Source: an uncultured Candidatus Saccharibacteria bacterium
GTDB taxonomy: Bacteria; Patescibacteriota; UBA1384; JAGGWG01; CAZAJM01
Direction of reading: 5' to 3'
Length of the DNA stretch: 64,000 nucleotides
Assembly (NCBI GenBank): GCA_964485625.1
Contig: CAZAJM010000001.1
Span: 29,803-93,802 of the forward strand
Below the pieces are notes generated by a model, which searched no databases, was not told the DNA's origin, and saw nothing but the letters and a program-made list of their open reading frames with translations. Positions 2,919 to 61,068 of this stretch are shown here, piece by piece (the first letter of the stretch is position 1; every line of letters begins with the position of its first letter). The position numbers and the translations under genes are program-made.

Positions 2919-3641
2919 ATGAATAAAACTGTTCAATACCTAATCTACTTTCTACTTCTAGTCTTAATCTTCTGGCTCTGGCTTAGTGGTGCTCTGGCTA
3001 GAGGGGTTGATTTTGCCCTCAGGTCAGGTGTGCCGGAGAAGACCATGATCTTAGTTCTGGCTCTGCCGATCGTGGTTACTCTTGTCTCATTTTCAAGACA
3101 GGTTATTGGCTTTCGAGTCTTTGGTATCTACCTGCCCTCAATTTTAACCATAATTTTTCTAGACATTGGTATCCAGTACGGCCTAATTCTGTTTATCACT
3201 ATTATCTTGCTAGGTACTTTTATGAGGTTTCTGCTCCAAAAATACCGTCTGCTCTATTTGCCCAGAATGTCGATAACTCTAACCGTAATTGCTCTGGGTA
3301 TGGTTATCTTTCTAGTTCTATCAGGCTACTTTGACTTTACCAATATTGCTCAGGCGACGGTCTTCTCTATGCTTCTAATGATAATTTTAGCTGAGAAGTT
3401 TATTGAGGCGGAGATCGAGAAAGGTTTGCCCGAGACAATCAAGCTTACTTTTGAAACACTAATCATCTCTATCTTAGCCACTCTTCTAGTAAGATGGCCT
3501 CTACTCCAGAACTTCTTGTTGCTCCACCCAGAAAGCATTATTGCAGTTATTATCTTTAATTTAAGTGTGGGCAGATGGACAGGCCTAAGAATTAGAGAGT
3601 ACTTGCGTTTTGGCGATGTAATTAACAAACAGGAGGAATAA
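2919..3641 (+). CDS. Polytopic membrane protein, 7TM type associated with RimK-like ATP-grasp systems (7TM_transglut-like module without a transglutaminase domain)
   Basis: 240 aa, about 7 hydrophobic helices. Immediately upstream of, and translationally coupled to, the ATP-grasp/retropepsin gene (stop TAA directly followed by ATG at 3642). Confidence 0.45.
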   Translation: MNKTVQYLIYFLLLVLIFWLWLSGALARGVDFALRSGVPEKTMILVLALPIVVTLVSFSRQVIGFRVFGIYLPSILTIIFLDIGIQYGLILFITIILLGTFMRFLLQKYRLLYLPRMSITLTVIALGMVIFLVLSGYFDFTNIAQATVFSMLLMIILAEKFIEAEIEKGLPETIKLTFETLIISILATLLVRWPLLQNFLLLHPESIIAVIIFNLSVGRWTGLRIREYLRFGDVINKQEE

Positions 3642-5039
3642 TTGATGGCTAGCCCGGACAAAATCTTAGGGATGAACGCTCGTAATTTGATATATATCCG
3701 TCCTAATAATCTAAAACCGGCAACTAGATTAGCTGATGATAAGCTTGGGCACAAGAAACTCCTAGATGACAATGAGTACCCGGTGCCAAATATTTTTGCT
3801 GAGTTTAAAACTCCAGATGATGTCCAACAGTTTGATTGGAAGAACCTACCCAACTCTTTTGTAATTAAGCCGGCTATGGGTTTTGGCGGAGAGGGTATTA
3901 TGGTTGTCTTTGCTAAGACCAAAGAGGGCTGGATTAGAACCGATGGCTCAACAATTGATATCGAGCAGATGAAGATTCACTGCCTAGATATTCTAGATGG
4001 TTCCTACTCCATGCACTCCACTCCGGATGTGGCCTTTATTGAACAGAAAGTAATTACCCACCCGGTCTTTAAGAAGTATACCTATAAAGGAACTCCTGAT
4101 ATTAGAATTATTGTTTTTAATCAGGTGCCGGTGATGGCCATGCTTCGGGTGCCGACAGAAGAGTCCGATGGCAGAGCCAATCTTCATGCCGGAGCACTAG
4201 GCATTGGTATTGAGATAGCCAGTGGCATTACTACCCATGCTATCTACCACGGTCATGAAGTTTCTCGGTTGCCCAGCAATAACAAGGTTAAGCTTCATGG
4301 GCTTAAGATCCCTTATTGGGACGATATGCTCAAGATGTCTTCTGAAATTCAAAAACTTACCGATATTGGCTATTTGGGTTTGGACTTTGTTCTAGACAAG
4401 AACGAAGGGCCAATGATTTTAGAGCTTAACGCTAGGCCAGGGCTTTCAATTCAAAATGCTAATCTGGCTCCACTGCGAGATAGACTAAGAAGAGTAAAGG
4501 GGCTAAAGATAAAAAACTCAACCAAGGCGGTAAGAATTGCCAAAGAGCTTTTTGGTGGAGAGATTGAAAGAGAGGTTGAGGAGGCAACGGGCAGGCCAAT
4601 GGTTGGTTTTGTAGAGAAGGTCAAGATTGAGGGGAGAAAGAAGAAAAAGGCAGAAGTGAAAGCCAAGATAGATACGGGTGCCGGTTTTAGCTCTGTTGAA
4701 AGGGAGTTGGCTAGAGATCTGGGATACAAAAAGTCGATAGAGTTTTTCGACTCTTTTGATCTACCTGAATCGGTTTCGGCCGATGAGGCTAGAAAAATGT
4801 GTGAAGATTATGAACCTAAAATGTTAAAAGACAAACATATTATAGATGTGGCTATAGTTCACTCATCTCATGGCAGTAGTATAAGGCCTGTGATTAAACC
4901 GAAAATCACTCTTTCGGGAAAAACATTCCATGCCAAAGTAAACATATCTAAAAGAGAGCATTTAATGTATCCAATGATCGTTGGCAGAAGAGACTTGAAA
5001 GGTTTTATTGTTAATCCGGAGAAAAGTTTTGTGAAATGA
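3642..5039 (+). CDS. RimK-related alpha-L-glutamate-ligase-like ATP-grasp fused to a C-terminal retropepsin-like (PF05618 'ATP-dependent Zn protease'-type) domain
   Basis: The N-terminal ~300 aa carry ATP-grasp features (KPAMGFGGEGIMVV, ILELNARPG). The C-terminal ~150 aa carry a DTGA aspartyl motif (KIDTGAGFSS) and a ...MIVGRRDLKGFIVNPEKSF tail, as in PF05618. Confidence 0.7.
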   Translation: MMASPDKILGMNARNLIYIRPNNLKPATRLADDKLGHKKLLDDNEYPVPNIFAEFKTPDDVQQFDWKNLPNSFVIKPAMGFGGEGIMVVFAKTKEGWIRTDGSTIDIEQMKIHCLDILDGSYSMHSTPDVAFIEQKVITHPVFKKYTYKGTPDIRIIVFNQVPVMAMLRVPTEESDGRANLHAGALGIGIEIASGITTHAIYHGHEVSRLPSNNKVKLHGLKIPYWDDMLKMSSEIQKLTDIGYLGLDFVLDKNEGPMILELNARPGLSIQNANLAPLRDRLRRVKGLKIKNSTKAVRIAKELFGGEIEREVEEATGRPMVGFVEKVKIEGRKKKKAEVKAKIDTGAGFSSVERELARDLGYKKSIEFFDSFDLPESVSADEARKMCEDYEPKMLKDKHIIDVAIVHSSHGSSIRPVIKPKITLSGKTFHAKVNISKREHLMYPMIVGRRDLKGFIVNPEKSFVK

Positions 5040-55748: not shown

Positions 55749-56536
55749 ATCGAGAAATATCCCCTAGCAACTACTTACTTAGGGGTTGGTGAGTTAATAT
55801 ATATTGATTGTTTACCTGGCAAGCTAAGTTTAGTCTGCTAGGCAAGATCATTATACAGCTTGAGATAATTTTGGTCAAGGGTTGAAAAAAGTAAGAAAAT
55901 GAACTAATATTTACTTATCACCGACTAGAACCACCATAACCAAACAGAAAGGAGAAACAACTATGGACGCAGTCTGGTTTGTTGGATCGCTTTTGATTAT
56001 TCTTCTTTTCTGGAGACTGATAAGTTCTAGGAGAAAATCCGGAGGAAGAACAGTCTCTTTCTTCAATGTACATAAGAGCTCAGGAAGGAGAGAGTAAATT
56101 GAACCATTGGACCGATGAAGCTGTTATTACCATGATTGTTACCGGCCAGGAGGTTGCCGATGACATTAAAACGAAACAGGATCCAACAATAGTGAGTTGC
56201 CCTGATTGCGGCGCAGAGCATGATTATAGGGAGAGGTGTCCAGGATAATGTCAGTTGCTGAAAGAATCACAGGTTTATCTGTAATAGAATTATGCAATTA
56301 CTCTTTTCCAAGAATTACCAGATCAGATCAAGTTAGACCGACAAGAGCTTTTCAGTCCACCGGAGATAGCAGGCTTGATAGAATGAGAGTTATTGGTAAC
56401 GGTGATTTGGAAGTTATGAGAGAAAGAGAGCATTTGTTAGAACCACTGTCTAATTTTCTTCGCGAATAGAAGCGAGGATATTCTTAGGCAGTTTTTAATT
56501 AAAAAAGACTCAAAATATTTTAATAATCATATATAA

Positions 56537-57133
56537 TTATGAGTCTTGATCTGGGTTAATATATTCTGGATTGACGGCCACAAACTTAACTGGCTTGCAA
56601 TCTTGTCTAACCATCTTAGCAACCCATTCTTGTTCGTTGAATTCTTCCCCCAAACTACATGTCTCTATAACTCCAAAAATTTCCAAGCCTTCTTTTTGTA
56701 TGGGATAACAGTTCATAATAACATTTCTATCTGAGTTTCCATCTCTATGAATTGCTGGCGATCTATTTGACGCAGAGTTAGCGGTGACTGTGGTTATATT
56801 AGGCAATGAATCCCATCTGGAAACGATTGACAACATTTCTTTATCCCTTGAATATAGATAAATGTGAGTGCCATTGAATGGATGAGCTGAACTAATAGCC
56901 CAATCTAAGGATTTAAATAAGTAAGTTTTAGTCCCATCATAATCAATAGTAATAGCGTGTCGTCCAGTAGGCAAGCCATTTTCATCTTCCTCGCTTACTC
57001 CATCAATTATTCTTATTGGGCCTCCCATGCTCGGTGCGTGTTCTAACGAATCAAAATCAATCTCATCTTCAGGTGAGGCAGGAGTAAATAGAAATATTAG
57101 TCTTTGAAATCTAAACACATCTTGGTTTTCCAT
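56537..57133 (-). CDS. Hypothetical protein
   Basis: 198-aa ORF. No motif. Confidence 0.4.
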   Translation of the reverse strand: MENQDVFRFQRLIFLFTPASPEDEIDFDSLEHAPSMGGPIRIIDGVSEEDENGLPTGRHAITIDYDGTKTYLFKSLDWAISSAHPFNGTHIYLYSRDKEMLSIVSRWDSLPNITTVTANSASNRSPAIHRDGNSDRNVIMNCYPIQKEGLEIFGVIETCSLGEEFNEQEWVAKMVRQDCKPVKFVAVNPEYINPDQDS

Positions 57134-57207: not shown

Positions 57208-57663
57208 TTAGATCAAATATTTTTCAAAATCCTTAACTATCGGTGCTTTCGTCTTGTAGCCACTATCAACAATTTTGAATCCTTCCCTCTCTAAAAGTTT
57301 AATCTGCTTTGAAGGCTGGCCCATATATTTTTCGTAGACCTGGCCATCAGGTTTTATCACCCTCCAGTAGGGGGTTAGGTTCTTTCTGCCTTCTTCTCTG
57401 TCCTCTTCGGTTTTGTTGGCAGCAATACCGATAAATATACCTGTAGTTAGTTGGCAGGTAAAATCTACTTGGTGTTTCTTGTTAAGTTTTTCCACGATCT
57501 GTTTGGTAGTAATTAGCTTACCTTTAGGAACTTTACTGATAATTTGAGATATCTCCATCGGGCAAGAGATATACATCAGGCCTCTGTCTGTCTCTTTCTT
57601 GCTCATAAAACCTTCTTTTTCTTCACTAAATTTTTTTTGCCAAGACTTTTTTGTTTTAGTCAT
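57208..57663 (-). CDS. Alkyltransferase-like (ATL) protein: MGMT DNA-binding fold without the active-site Cys
   Basis: ISKVPKGKLITTKQIVEKL HTH region and TPYWRVI in place of the MGMT PCHRV motif (Cys replaced by an aromatic residue, as in ATL PWHRV). 151 aa. Confidence 0.55.
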   Translation of the reverse strand: MTKTKKSWQKKFSEEKEGFMSKKETDRGLMYISCPMEISQIISKVPKGKLITTKQIVEKLNKKHQVDFTCQLTTGIFIGIAANKTEEDREEGRKNLTPYWRVIKPDGQVYEKYMGQPSKQIKLLEREGFKIVDSGYKTKAPIVKDFEKYLI

Positions 57664-58087: not shown

Positions 58088-58231
58088 GGTAGCTTAATTT
58101 TAAGAATTAACTAGAAAAAAGGCAAATTAATAATTGTCTAATATTGACTAAGGTGTAACACTGTGATATTATGTAACCACTTTGTACCTATCGGTTGGTA
58201 GAACCAAAAAACTGCCAGGAGGTAGTCGACT

Positions 58232-59068
58232 ATGTCTGAACAGACAAAAGTCGTTGTCCTCAACGAGGCCCCCCATAATAGGATAGAGAAGGGCCTTGCC
58301 TGCTTGGCCAATGCTGGGGTAACCAGTGACCATTGGCAGCAGGCCACCATCGATGACCCGATCGCCCGAAGGTGTGTCGCCTCAGCTCTCAAGGGCGAGG
58401 TAGCTACTCCAATCACTCAAGACGATTGGTTGGAGCGTGAGGCTGAGATCCTCAGCCAGATCTGCGATAGTGGGAAGGGCTCAGGCATGTTCAGTGTCGA
58501 GTCCCTCCGTCCCGCACTGAACCGGGCAGTTGAGGAATGGGGAGAACCCACTGAGCACTGGCGGGTAATCCCCGGTGCCTACACCCTCCCCGACTTGTTC
58601 GAGATTCTCTACCGCTTGGAAGACAAGTGGCAGGAGGATCACAGCGGCAAGAGCTTCCTCTGCGGGAGGCGCAAAGAGGAGTGGTGGCGGACCAGTGACA
58701 CGTACCAGCCTATCGCCACTGAGCTTGGTGTCATGGTCTGCAACCTCGAGACCTGCGCTAACCCGACTGATCTGGACGGTGCCCCCTACTACCTCAACCG
58801 TGAGGAGCAGGAGGCCTGGGTCAAGACCCAGGGAGCGGAGGAAATGATGAGCGCTGAAGAGGTTATCTACCTCTTCATCCGCTCTATTATGGGGCTAAGC
58901 CGCCCTCTCTGGCCTGCCGGTACCATGCGCTGCCGAAACAACACCGGTTCGGGCGGCTCGCTCAGCGTCTATTGGCACGCGCGCGATGGCTTGAGCGTCA
59001 GCGGCTGGCACGATGTTGGTCCGAGTTGGTGCATCGGTGCTCTCCCCCGGAAGTTGGTTTTGGCCTAG
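58232..59068 (+). CDS. DGR variable (target) protein with a C-terminal VR in a CLec/FGE-like fold; strongly GC-rich gene
   Basis: The C-terminal ~36 codons are the VR. The whole ORF is about 55-58% GC against ~38% flanks. GGAGG RBS. No signal peptide or TM. The VR-encoded tail ...GSGGSLSVYWHARDGLSVSGWHDVGPSWCIGALPRK. Confidence 0.8.
   Translation: MSEQTKVVVLNEAPHNRIEKGLACLANAGVTSDHWQQATIDDPIARRCVASALKGEVATPITQDDWLEREAEILSQICDSGKGSGMFSVESLRPALNRAVEEWGEPTEHWRVIPGAYTLPDLFEILYRLEDKWQEDHSGKSFLCGRRKEEWWRTSDTYQPIATELGVMVCNLETCANPTDLDGAPYYLNREEQEAWVKTQGAEEMMSAEEVIYLFIRSIMGLSRPLWPAGTMRCRNNTGSGGSLSVYWHARDGLSVSGWHDVGPSWCIGALPRKLVLA
58945..59053 (+). repeat. DGR variable repeat (VR), 109 nt
   Basis: Identical to the TR at 59417-59525 at all 92 non-mismatched positions. 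All 17 mismatches fall where the TR has A (VR has G/C/T). A GC palindrome GGCCTAGGCC (59062-59071) lies immediately 3'. Confidence 0.85.
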
Positions 59069-59416
59069 GCCCTTGGGGTCTGGGATCTATTGGGTGTTAG
59101 CTCTTGGTTTTTCCGCTCTGCGGATCACCTTGGACTAACGCCCATCTTTTTTTAAATAAAAATATGGTAGAATATAGTTAAGATAGCAATGAATTGGAGT
59201 TTACGGATTCCAATCGCTATCTTCCTGATCTCTTGGAGACAGAGTCCTTAATTTGAATCTGAATTAAGGGGAGTTTTTAAAAAGGGATTAGAGACTTCTT
59301 ACTGTCTGTTTGGCAGGGTTTTGGTAGCTTGAATACTTGCCACATAAAATACAGGGAGGAGTAGCCTTATTTGAGGTCTCAACTCCTGGTGGTTGCAGAG
59401 GACAGATAGTAAATTA

Positions 59417-59525
59417 CGGTTCGGGCAACTCGCTCAACGTCAATTGGAACGCGAACGATGGCTTGAACGTCAACAACTGGCACGATGATGATCCGAATTG
59501 GAACATCGGTGCTCTCCCCCGGAAG
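59417..59525 (+). repeat. DGR template repeat (TR), 109 nt, rich in AAC codons
   Basis: cggttcgggcAActcgctcaAcgtcAattggAacgcgAAcgatggcttgaAcgtcaAcAActggcacgatgAtgAtccgaAttggAAcatcggtgctctcccccggaag. Capitals mark TR adenines substituted in the VR. Confidence 0.85.
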
Positions 59526-59544
59526 TCTCTATTTCTTTTGGAAT

Positions 59545-59892
59545 TTATCTGACAGACCTTATCCAACCTCCCAACATTTTGCCAATCTCTTGGAGCATTT
59601 CTTCCAGAGCTAAATATCTTTTAGTCGGAATTGCCTTAATTTCCTCTCCCATTCTAAGAAGAACTTTTAAAAGATCTAATTTAATACTGGCTTTTTTCAA
59701 GTATTTTAACTTTGTTTCTCTATGAGAATTGTTGCTAGCAGTAATTAAGTATTCCATAATCTCTAATGTAATGTCATCTGTTTTTTGCCCTAGGGTGTAT
59801 TTATTTCTTTTTGGCATTTTTTCAACTACAAACATTAATTCTCGATAGAAATTGTAAGTTTTGGTAACAATAGGAGCTTCTTGATTGCTCAT
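59545..59892 (-). CDS. avd: DGR accessory variability determinant (Avd), four-helix-bundle family, encoded antisense between TR and RT
   Basis: 115 aa. Resembles 23S-rRNA-IVS/Avd four-helix-bundle proteins (YTLGQKTDD..., KLDLLKVLLRMGEEIKAI, C-terminus EIGKMLGGWIRSVR cf. ...VAKMLSGLIRSR). Its ATG overlaps the RT ATG in the palindrome CATG at 59890-59893. Confidence 0.65.
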   Translation of the reverse strand: MSNQEAPIVTKTYNFYRELMFVVEKMPKRNKYTLGQKTDDITLEIMEYLITASNNSHRETKLKYLKKASIKLDLLKVLLRMGEEIKAIPTKRYLALEEMLQEIGKMLGGWIRSVR

Positions 59893-60880
59893 GGCTAAAC
59901 TAATTAATGATATTACTAGTATTGAAAACTTGTTTTTAAGCTGGAAAAATTTTAGAAAAGGCAAACGCCATAAACCGGATGTGCAGCAGTTCGAACGGTA
60001 CCTTGAAGATAATCTATTCCAACTTCGTCAAGAGTTTAAAACGGGCAGCTACAGACATGGTAATTATATCAGCTTCAATATTACTGACCCAAAATCAAGA
60101 TTGATTCACAAGGCTAAAGTTAGGGATCGAGTAGTACATCACGGAGTATACCGTCAACTTTATCCAATCTTTGATAAAGGCTTTATTTTTGACAGCTACT
60201 CTTGTAGAAATAACAAAGGAACTCATAGGGCGATAAAGAGGTTAAGAAAATTTACTATCAAGGTATCCAAAAACAATATAAGAGTCTGTTGGGCTTTGAA
60301 GCTTGATGTTAAAAAGTTTTTTAATAGTGTAGATCAGCAAATTCTGTTAAAGCTTATCTCTAAGAAAATTAAAGACAGAAAAGCTCTAAGTTTAATTGAT
60401 GAAATAATCGGTAGTTTTTCTGTGGATAAAAAATCTCAGAGAGAGAGAGAGAGAGAGTTAAGGGGTCTGCCGATTGGCAATTTGACTTCTCAACTTTTTG
60501 CAAATATCTACCTAAATCCCTTGGATCAGTTTGTAAAGCATGAGTTAAAAGAAAAATATTATCTTCGTTACTGTGATGACTTTGTTATTCTTAGTAAAGA
60601 CAGAAAGCATCTGATTAAGCGTATTTTTAAGATCGAGAAGTTTTTAAGCAAGAAATTAAAATTAAATTTACATCCTGATAAAATAATTCTAACAAAACTA
60701 AAACAGGGCATAGACTTTTTAGGTTACGTTGTTTTGCCACATTCAATTGTTCTGCGAACTAAAACTAAAAAAAGGATGTTAAATATGATTAACGAGAGTA
60801 ACAAAGACTCGTACTTAGGACTGCTCAAGCATTGTGATAGTTATAAATTGAAACAAAGAATAAGAAGTATTTTTGATTGA
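59891..60880 (+). CDS. DGR reverse transcriptase
   Basis: RT motifs: GLPIGNLTSQLFANIYL (the DGR-specific IGxxxSQ replacing group-II QGxxSP) and YLRYCDDFVIL (YxDD). About 330 aa, the size typical of DGR RTs. The track ORF starts at a TTG at 59885. Confidence 0.9.
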   Translation: MAKLINDITSIENLFLSWKNFRKGKRHKPDVQQFERYLEDNLFQLRQEFKTGSYRHGNYISFNITDPKSRLIHKAKVRDRVVHHGVYRQLYPIFDKGFIFDSYSCRNNKGTHRAIKRLRKFTIKVSKNNIRVCWALKLDVKKFFNSVDQQILLKLISKKIKDRKALSLIDEIIGSFSVDKKSQRERERELRGLPIGNLTSQLFANIYLNPLDQFVKHELKEKYYLRYCDDFVILSKDRKHLIKRIFKIEKFLSKKLKLNLHPDKIILTKLKQGIDFLGYVVLPHSIVLRTKTKKRMLNMINESNKDSYLGLLKHCDSYKLKQRIRSIFD

Positions 60881-60922
60881 GAACATTACATTTTTAACTA
60901 TCTGTTTTTTTAACTAAAAAAA

Positions 60923-60997
60923 TCGGGGCACTCGGACTTGAACCGAGAATCTCCACGTCCCAAACGTGGCGCCTTAAGCCAATTAGGCCATGCCCCG
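60923..60997 (-). tRNA. tRNA-Pro (anticodon TGG)
   Basis: Minus strand CGGGGCATGGCCTAATTGGCTTAAGGCGCCACGTTTGGGACGTGGAGATTCTCGGTTCAAGTCCGAGTGCCCCGA. Anticodon loop TTTGGGA. Confidence 0.8.
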
Positions 60998-61068
60998 ATC
61001 TAGAAATAATATAGCAGAAGCTAGGCCATATTTCAATATCTAGTTATTTTGATATAATATAGACACAT

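Follow-up and report, generated by a model that had tools for sequence, protein, structure and literature searches.

A diversity-generating retroelement of the CPR type in a Saccharibacteria contig, with a candidate slipped-strand switch in its reverse transcriptase gene

The diversity-generating retroelements (DGRs) of Candidate Phyla Radiation (CPR) bacteria are described as having architecture B3, that is, a template repeat (TR), the gene of the accessory variability determinant (avd) on the reverse strand, and the reverse transcriptase (RT) gene, in the order TR-(avd)-RT; 90% of CPR DGRs have this architecture, which is almost absent elsewhere (Wu et al. 2018, PMC5758913). The activity of the CPR clade of DGRs is reported to be below average (Roux et al. 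2021, PMC8144416). In the Bordetella phage BPP-1 the order is mtd - avd - TR - brt. The stretch of DNA analysed here, called the window throughout, comprises 64,000 nt from an uncultured Candidatus Saccharibacteria bacterium (contig CAZAJM010000001.1 of assembly GCA_964485625.1, positions 29,803 to 93,802); with a probability of about 0.88 it is considered to carry a chromosomal DGR of the CPR/Patescibacteria type with architecture B3, arranged target - TR - avd (reverse strand) - RT and working by the mechanism proposed below. The core of the element is an ordinary new member of the CPR class, an assignment that follows from its RT relatives and its architecture. As a DGR it is one more example of a class abundant in CPR bacteria, and its value lies in comparison; what raises its interest is an apparent switch in the RT gene, a leader RNA and a GC-rich target.

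The variable repeat (VR; 58944-59054, plus strand) lies in the 3' end of the target gene and the TR (59416-59526, plus strand) is intergenic; they are offset by 472 and their alignment is gapless. The formal alignment that the initial annotation had called for, with mismatches tabulated by TR base, places each of the 17 mismatches at a TR adenine, the other bases having none, while 12 of the 29 TR adenines are the same in the VR; given that A makes up 26% of positions, the probability that 17 mismatches all fall on A is about 1.4e-10. The pair is adenine-specific, as defines a DGR. Two 109-nt repeats with 17 mismatches had been described at first; the repeats stand, but the count does not, as 58945-59053 and 59417-59525 contain 16 mismatches (11 A>G, 3 A>T and 2 A>C) and the 17th, an A>C, is located at 58944/59416, one base 5' of the repeats as then delimited. 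A non-A mismatch at 58943 forms the 5' edge of the VR repeat. In the target frame 12 TR adenines occupy codon position 1, 17 occupy position 2 and 0 occupy position 3; the TR is rich in AAC, as had been remarked, with 8 AAC and 2 AAT among its codons in the VR frame. The variable codons number 18, from which about 1e17 protein variants are computed. Within the VR, 58944-59031 is variable, and the GC-rich terminal 23 nt, CATCGGTGCTCTCCCCCGGAAGT (59032-59054), is the same in the VR and the TR (59504-59526), the copies diverging beyond it; by sequence this segment is like the initiation of mutagenic homing sites (IMH in the VR, IMH* in the TR). The VR ends 14 nt short of the target stop codon.

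A GC palindrome following the VR had been likened to the homing hairpins of characterised DGRs; this palindrome, GGCCTAGGCC, is present at 59062-59071 and spans the TAG stop codon of the target, but it is not conserved in the closest target homologue (L001, which has GTTCTAGGCC), and the fold that includes it (stem 59064-59072/59076-59084, -4.5 kcal/mol as DNA) is no better than that of shuffled sequences (z = -1.4), so its role as a homing hairpin was dropped. The short inverted repeat at 59064-59084 (plus strand), folded as DNA into a 9-bp stem with a TTG loop, is a weak candidate for such a hairpin; its core, GGCCCTTGGGGTC, is the same in L001 and altered on both sides in L003. An inverted repeat rich in GC occurs downstream of the VR in 34% of DGRs and is therefore not universal (Wu et al. 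2018, PMC5758913).

The 115-aa open reading frame (ORF) between the TR and the RT gene was correctly recognised as Avd-like in both identity and position, but its strand had to be corrected; avd lies at 59545-59892 on the minus strand. The protein scores 92.3 bits against NF033474 (DivGenRetAVD, NCBIfam; cut-off 80) and 74.9 bits against Pfam PF22296 (bAvd; cut-off 40), so that the proposed family check ends above both curated cut-offs, and the orientation of the gene is the same in L005 and L004. The RT gene (59891-60880, plus strand) encodes 329 aa matching Pfam PF00078 (RVT_1), with both of the motifs noticed initially, IGNLTSQ (of the DGR type IGxxxSQ) and YCDD; its best relative in the PDB is the Bordetella RT (bRT, 8ub7; E = 2.2e-44), ahead of the best group II RT (4.8e-19), and the match to the NCBIfam group II model is sub-threshold (150.9 bits, cut-off 300). 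Homologues of this RT exceed 7,598, and those that carry names are Patescibacteria, Parcubacteria and the like. The ATG codons of avd and the RT gene overlap head to head in CATG (59890-59893; the starts are about 10 nt apart in L005), so that the upstream signals of each gene fall within the coding sequence of the other; upstream of the RT an AGGAG at 59873-59877 stands 7 nt before an alternative TTG start at 59885. As deposited at NCBI, the RT protein (P0095, 299 aa) spans only 91% of the 329-aa ORF, and its start appears too far downstream, as homologues and bRT align from residue 3.

For comparison, 80 loci with related RTs were taken from genomes, one per species. At 57 of the 80, selected by at least 75% of VR/TR mismatches falling at TR adenines, the VR lies 400-550 nt 5' of the TR and the TR 420-560 nt 5' of the RT; the same layout as in the window surrounds a 36%-identical member of the target family in L005. 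This shared layout marks the element in the window as a canonical CPR-type DGR.

Within the RT gene, a perfect (AG)10 tract (60438-60457, plus strand) lies in the loop just before IGNLTSQ and is in frame (ON), making it a candidate slipped-strand switch. It is the only period-2 array in the 64-kb window, and it is translated as RERERE, part of a loop that amounts to an insertion of 13 aa against bRT; (RE)n is found at the same position in 21 of the 120 best RT homologues, within otherwise unalignable loops. The RT frame of L005 breaks exactly at a (GA)7 tract, where (GA)8 or (GA)5 would restore an RT of 367-369 aa. A frame-agnostic scan of metagenome DNA for (AG)6 followed by the IGNLTSQ codons gave at least 120 loci, and frames could be read in 96 loci that carry the tract and extend far enough 5' of it (93 among the scan matches listed, to which the window, L004 and L012 were added); the count is 72 out of frame at the tract (OFF), 19 ON and 5 with other damage. 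In every one of the 72 OFF loci (among the matches listed) both halves of the gene are open and one repeat unit restores the frame, 40 needing +1 and 32 needing -1; with 16 ON against 72 OFF among the matches listed, ON is rarer than a one-in-three chance would give (p = 0.0012). Of 44 OFF loci in which a TR/VR pair could be identified, 35 keep A-biased VR/TR differences, which points to activity in the past. Two contigs from sister samples that are 96% identical (L141 and L170) are one AG unit apart, one being in frame and one out; three identical pairs have equal tract lengths, among them the window and L004, both with (AG)10.

This pattern suggests a slipped-strand contingency switch in preference to decay or assembly error, and a switch that is ON in the window is the reading favoured here for the tract, albeit with some reserve. 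Gain or loss of an AG unit would shift the RT among one ON and two OFF frames, and hypermutation would then come in heritable, reversible bursts; such a switch would also fit the report by Roux et al. of below-average activity in the CPR clade. A literature search, which did not cover Paul et al. 2017 on CPR, found nothing that connects DGR RTs with phase variation, repeats or frameshifts. Related RTs without the AG tract include L084 and L088 (A8) and L078 (T8), which have homopolymer runs of 8 at most 200 nt 5' of the IGNLTSQ codons; other repeat types may thus play the role of the tract.

The alternative that survives best, although it is considered unlikely, is that (AG)n is a neutral microsatellite in a tolerant loop, or plainly an Arg-Glu loop, with the OFF alleles being assembly errors or dying genes. 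Loop length is indeed very variable among these RTs, and most related RTs do not have the tract; four or more AG units occur in just 3 of the 80 related genomes, which makes the tract a marker of one subset of these elements, and tract-length polymorphism between near-identical sequences is seen in one pair only. Against this, the frame breaks at the tract itself, and 72 of the 77 non-ON loci (among the matches listed) are open in both halves and restorable by exactly one repeat unit, which disfavours random decay; OFF alleles exceed the neutral expectation (16 ON of 88 among the matches listed, p = 0.0012) and A-biased VR/TR pairs persist beside them. Consensus errors at this rate are also unlikely, as tracts of 12-51 nt are well within read length. 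A less probable explanation is that OFF alleles are expressed through slippage of RNA polymerase or the ribosome on (AG)n, the tract serving to tune RT dosage; the predominance of OFF alleles that are otherwise intact agrees with this, and heterogeneous slippage could supply both the +1 and the -1 corrections that different loci need. Two points count against this explanation: the cases of efficient transcriptional slippage known to us involve long homopolymers rather than AG dinucleotide repeats, and no conserved stimulatory structure is present beside the tract, the flanks of which vary between loci.

In the mechanism proposed for the window, an RNA would start past the target terminator and carry a structured leader followed by the 111-nt TR; the RT with Avd would copy the TR RNA into cDNA, misincorporating opposite the 29 TR adenines, and this cDNA would take the place of the VR, at the 3' end of the target gene (278 aa), with the GC-rich IMH-like segment as the boundary. 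In this manner 18 codons on the surface of a C-type-lectin-fold domain would be recoded, with no change to the remainder of the protein or to the TR. Putative in this scheme are the sites where transcription starts, what the leader does, priming and activity at the present day, as is the switching of the RT.

The region between the target and the TR holds the signals to which the scheme refers. A hairpin followed by a T run (59091-59155, plus strand) is assigned as the target terminator (-13.1 kcal/mol, z = -4.5; 200 shuffles gave none as good); the hairpin is followed by CATCTTTTTTT, and an equivalent hairpin and T run is present in L005. A promoter-like site, TTTAAA-16-TATAGT (59151-59178, plus strand; 9/12 in a consensus scan), is placed between the terminator and the conserved leader and may serve the TR RNA. 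The 'TR leader' itself (59195-59366, plus strand) is a conserved structured RNA of about 160 nt with a core at about 59200-59354, identified through nhmmer and covariation; it ends some 60 nt 5' of the TR and is conserved with L005 despite low protein identity. Iterative nhmmer found it in 54 fetched loci, always just 5' of TR-(avd)-RT, and in the 13 loci with a known TR start its 3' end is 51-86 nt, mostly 51-66 nt, from the TR. In a MAFFT alignment of 36 sequences, 91.8% of cells in three helices are paired, compared with 39-51% for slid partners, and double-change cells number 152 against 20-35 when slid; none of 500 shuffles comes up to the values observed. Rfam, searched at gathering scores and at E <= 1, returned only tRNAs and no match for the leader. 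The leader is interpreted as the 5' domain of the template RNA. Many leaders (L094, L093, L174, L177 and others) run on as CAGGA..GAGAGGAU, and many TRs are followed by CUCUC-type runs, a pattern that hints at a helix bracketing the TR; pairing of the leader 3' end with the RNA just after the TR gave duplex energies no better than shuffles (mean z = -0.19), and for this reason such a helix is not claimed.

The target gene (58232-59068, plus strand; GC 0.59) encodes a 278-aa protein composed of a helical N-terminal region of about 150 aa and a C-terminal C-type-lectin-fold domain that contains the VR. A promoter-like site, TTGACT-17-TATTAT, TG-extended (58144-58172, plus strand; 10/12 in a consensus scan), which may serve the target, is located within a leader of about 50 nt conserved with L001. 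Neither the target nor its family profile finds a match in Pfam, NCBIfam or PDB sequence searches; a word-indexed search with the target gave three relatives only, and the single protein found no relative in the one-genome-per-species collection. A HMMER scan of 1.84 billion cluster representatives returned 91 clusters of 260-285 aa proteins in which the C-terminal half is conserved, the closest homologue of the target (L001) being 76% identical; of 70 family members scanned, 0 match Pfam, PF03781 and PF07603 included. With a 70-sequence alignment, AlphaFold2 gives a model of the target with a predicted local distance difference test score (pLDDT) of 94.3 and a predicted template modelling score (pTM) of 0.90; the confident model needed this alignment, as a 3-sequence alignment gave a pLDDT of 38.6. 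On the basis of this model the C-terminal ~130 aa are confidently predicted to adopt the C-type-lectin fold; comparison of the model with known structures scores 9.6 for the Bd2740 C-terminal domain, 8.5 for a paralogue of the formylglycine-generating enzyme (FGE), 8.2 for Legionella Lcl, 7.8 for TvpA, 7.6 for Mtd and 5.7 for TaqVP. Foldseek with the model found one weak PDB match only and none among viral models, and the helical N-terminal ~150 aa have no structural match. The CLec/FGE-type fold expected of the C-terminus is accordingly seen in the model, whereas the family match expected in Pfam is not, and the unexplained N-terminal part, formerly put at 240 aa, shrinks to about 150 aa since the lectin-fold domain fills about 130 aa. 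In no 19-aa stretch of the target does hydrophobicity reach the level of a signal peptide or membrane segment, which is the one ground for calling it cytoplasmic; in this the target agrees with CPR DGR targets in general (Roux et al. 2021, PMC8144416).

The composition of the target sets it apart from its surroundings, with a GC content of 0.59 (0.72 at third codon positions) against 0.39 in the flanking DNA and 0.32 in its own RT and avd genes. A GC-rich target is likewise found at 8 of 8 target-family loci examined (L001, L003, L005, L006 and L008-L011). Across 53 CPR DGR loci of other genomes, one per species, the target without its VR exceeds its flanks by a mean of 0.085 GC, by more than 0.10 in 23 of the 53, and its own RT by a mean of 0.129; the window target is the extreme of this trend. 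Targets are depleted in A and in T to the same degree, so the excess cannot be put down to adenine. Target cassettes may have been transferred recently, although so widespread a trend fits this badly. L001, and likewise L002, has its target homologue on a 10-kb contig without TR, avd or RT; the gene lies between 114-nt direct repeats (3343-3456 and 4671-4784, 78% identical) whose source is the 3' end of the 203-aa gene upstream; the arrangement would fit insertion of the GC-rich gene of about 1.2 kb as a cassette, or else loss of the DGR core. A search beside this orphan target for a leader or TR remnant gave nothing significant (E = 0.67).

The element in the window is probably active at present, judging from the 17 A-site differences and the intact genes. 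That it is instead a relic, in which the VR/TR differences record past activity of a DGR that has stopped and the target is now a fixed gene, is thought improbable; it draws on the lower activity of CPR DGRs (Roux et al. 2021, PMC8144416), on activity being gauged from one assembly rather than a population, and on the orphan target copies (L001, L006 and L010) with no TR or RT nearby. All parts of the element are intact, however, with an RT in frame through (AG)10 and a full-length Avd above cut-off, the TR adenines are all still in codon positions 1-2, and the IMH-like segment is identical in both copies. Least of all can the repeats be an ordinary duplication beside an unrelated group II intron or retron enzyme, a reading to which only the sub-threshold group II match lends anything and which is effectively refuted by 17 of 17 mismatches at A of one copy only (P~1e-10), an RT far closer to bRT than to group II RTs, an adjoining Avd of curated level, the same layout in 57 genomes and an Rfam search that found no intron RNA or retron ncRNA.

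Several observations weigh against the element being all that is proposed here. Heterogeneity of the VR and present activity are predictions from the sequence of one assembly; L004, the sole other assembly of the same RT and strain, ends inside avd, before the TR. The post-VR hairpin is weak, the putative transcription starts are consensus matches only, and a Shine-Dalgarno sequence was looked for upstream of avd, the start of which overlaps that of the RT, with none recognisable. At about half of the target-family loci examined (L001, L006/L007 and L010) no adjacent TR, avd or RT is present in the available DNA, and target-family genes thus also exist without an adjacent element. To these are added, for the tract, its occurrence in few of the related genomes, the single pair with differing lengths, and the slippage by which OFF alleles could be read through.

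The neighbours of the element are ordinary chromosomal genes, with uvrB upstream and tRNA-Pro and membrane proteins downstream, and there is no phage context. The RT stop codon is followed after 42 nt by the tRNA-Pro(UGG) gene (60922-60998, minus strand); genes for tRNAs often serve as integration sites, and near this one no integrase and no direct repeat was seen. Upstream of the target, a 151-aa protein (57208-57663, minus strand) has only the DNA-binding domain of O6-methylguanine methyltransferase, scoring exactly at the Pfam cut-off, and may be an alkyltransferase-like protein; the 138-aa and 198-aa ORFs beside it belong to no family. From uvrB to the next gene (55750-56540, about 790 nt) there are short ORFs of 44-77 aa only, with a positive GC skew; neither Pfam nor Rfam gives a significant match in this region, and among the ORFs one of 60 aa shows a weak zinc-ribbon match (E = 0.005).

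Taken together, these features allow a broader and still tentative proposal, for which the doubts slightly outweigh the support: in a large subset of CPR DGRs, hypermutation would be under a stochastic, heritable switch, (AG)n in the RT keeping most cells and lineages OFF while rare ON lineages rewrite a lectin-fold protein in bursts; a structured leader 5' of the TR that has no earlier description, in place of the spacer of BPP-1, would assemble the RT-Avd complex; and the targets would be compositionally foreign GC-rich cassettes that also persist as orphans. A tract that is out of frame in about four-fifths of tract-bearing elements, with both halves intact, would be a concrete mechanism for DGR regulation, and could bear on why many DGRs, those of the CPR clade above all, look inactive in metagenomes. 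RT-based surveys of DGRs that use called full-length proteins would miss or split the OFF alleles. The conserved leader provides a handle on the formation of template RNA in the inverted-avd architecture, and the target family, which has no Pfam model, adds through its confident predicted model to the lectin-fold scaffolds for massive variation.

Simple-sequence-repeat contingency loci include the phase-variable mod genes of type III restriction-modification systems and the poly-G genes of Campylobacter. The tract resembles these in being a perfect short repeat within an ORF, with alleles that are whole units apart, in or out of frame in a gene that is otherwise intact; it differs from them in that the repeat is an AG dinucleotide, the gene putatively switched is the RT of a mutagenic retroelement, and the hosts are uncultivated CPR bacteria. 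Compared with the B3 DGRs of CPR and DPANN lineages (Wu et al. 2018, PMC5758913; 'DGR clade 2' of Roux et al. 2021, PMC8144416), the window has the same gene order and orientation with a reverse-strand avd, is likewise chromosomal with a single target and a C-terminal VR about 470 nt 5' of the TR, has a target without transmembrane segment or known domain, and has named RT relatives that are all Patescibacteria. The core is no different from theirs; the RT (AG)n tract, the leader RNA and the target GC excess are matters on which the two papers are silent. Set beside the C-type-lectin-fold variable proteins of DGRs (Mtd, TvpA, TaqVP, AvpA) and the FGE-sulfatase and DUF1566 (Lcl) domains, the target family is distinct in that none of its 70 members scanned matches PF03781, PF07603 or another Pfam model, and in that its N-terminal helical domain has no structural match. 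In contrast to BPP-1, the window has avd inverted between the TR and the RT gene, so that the RNA 3' of the TR is antisense to avd in place of the BPP-1 spacer, and a conserved structured RNA lies 5' of the TR; the element is chromosomal, with a target that is not a tail fibre, and the loop of its RT before IGxxxSQ holds the 13-aa insertion in which the repeat tract lies.

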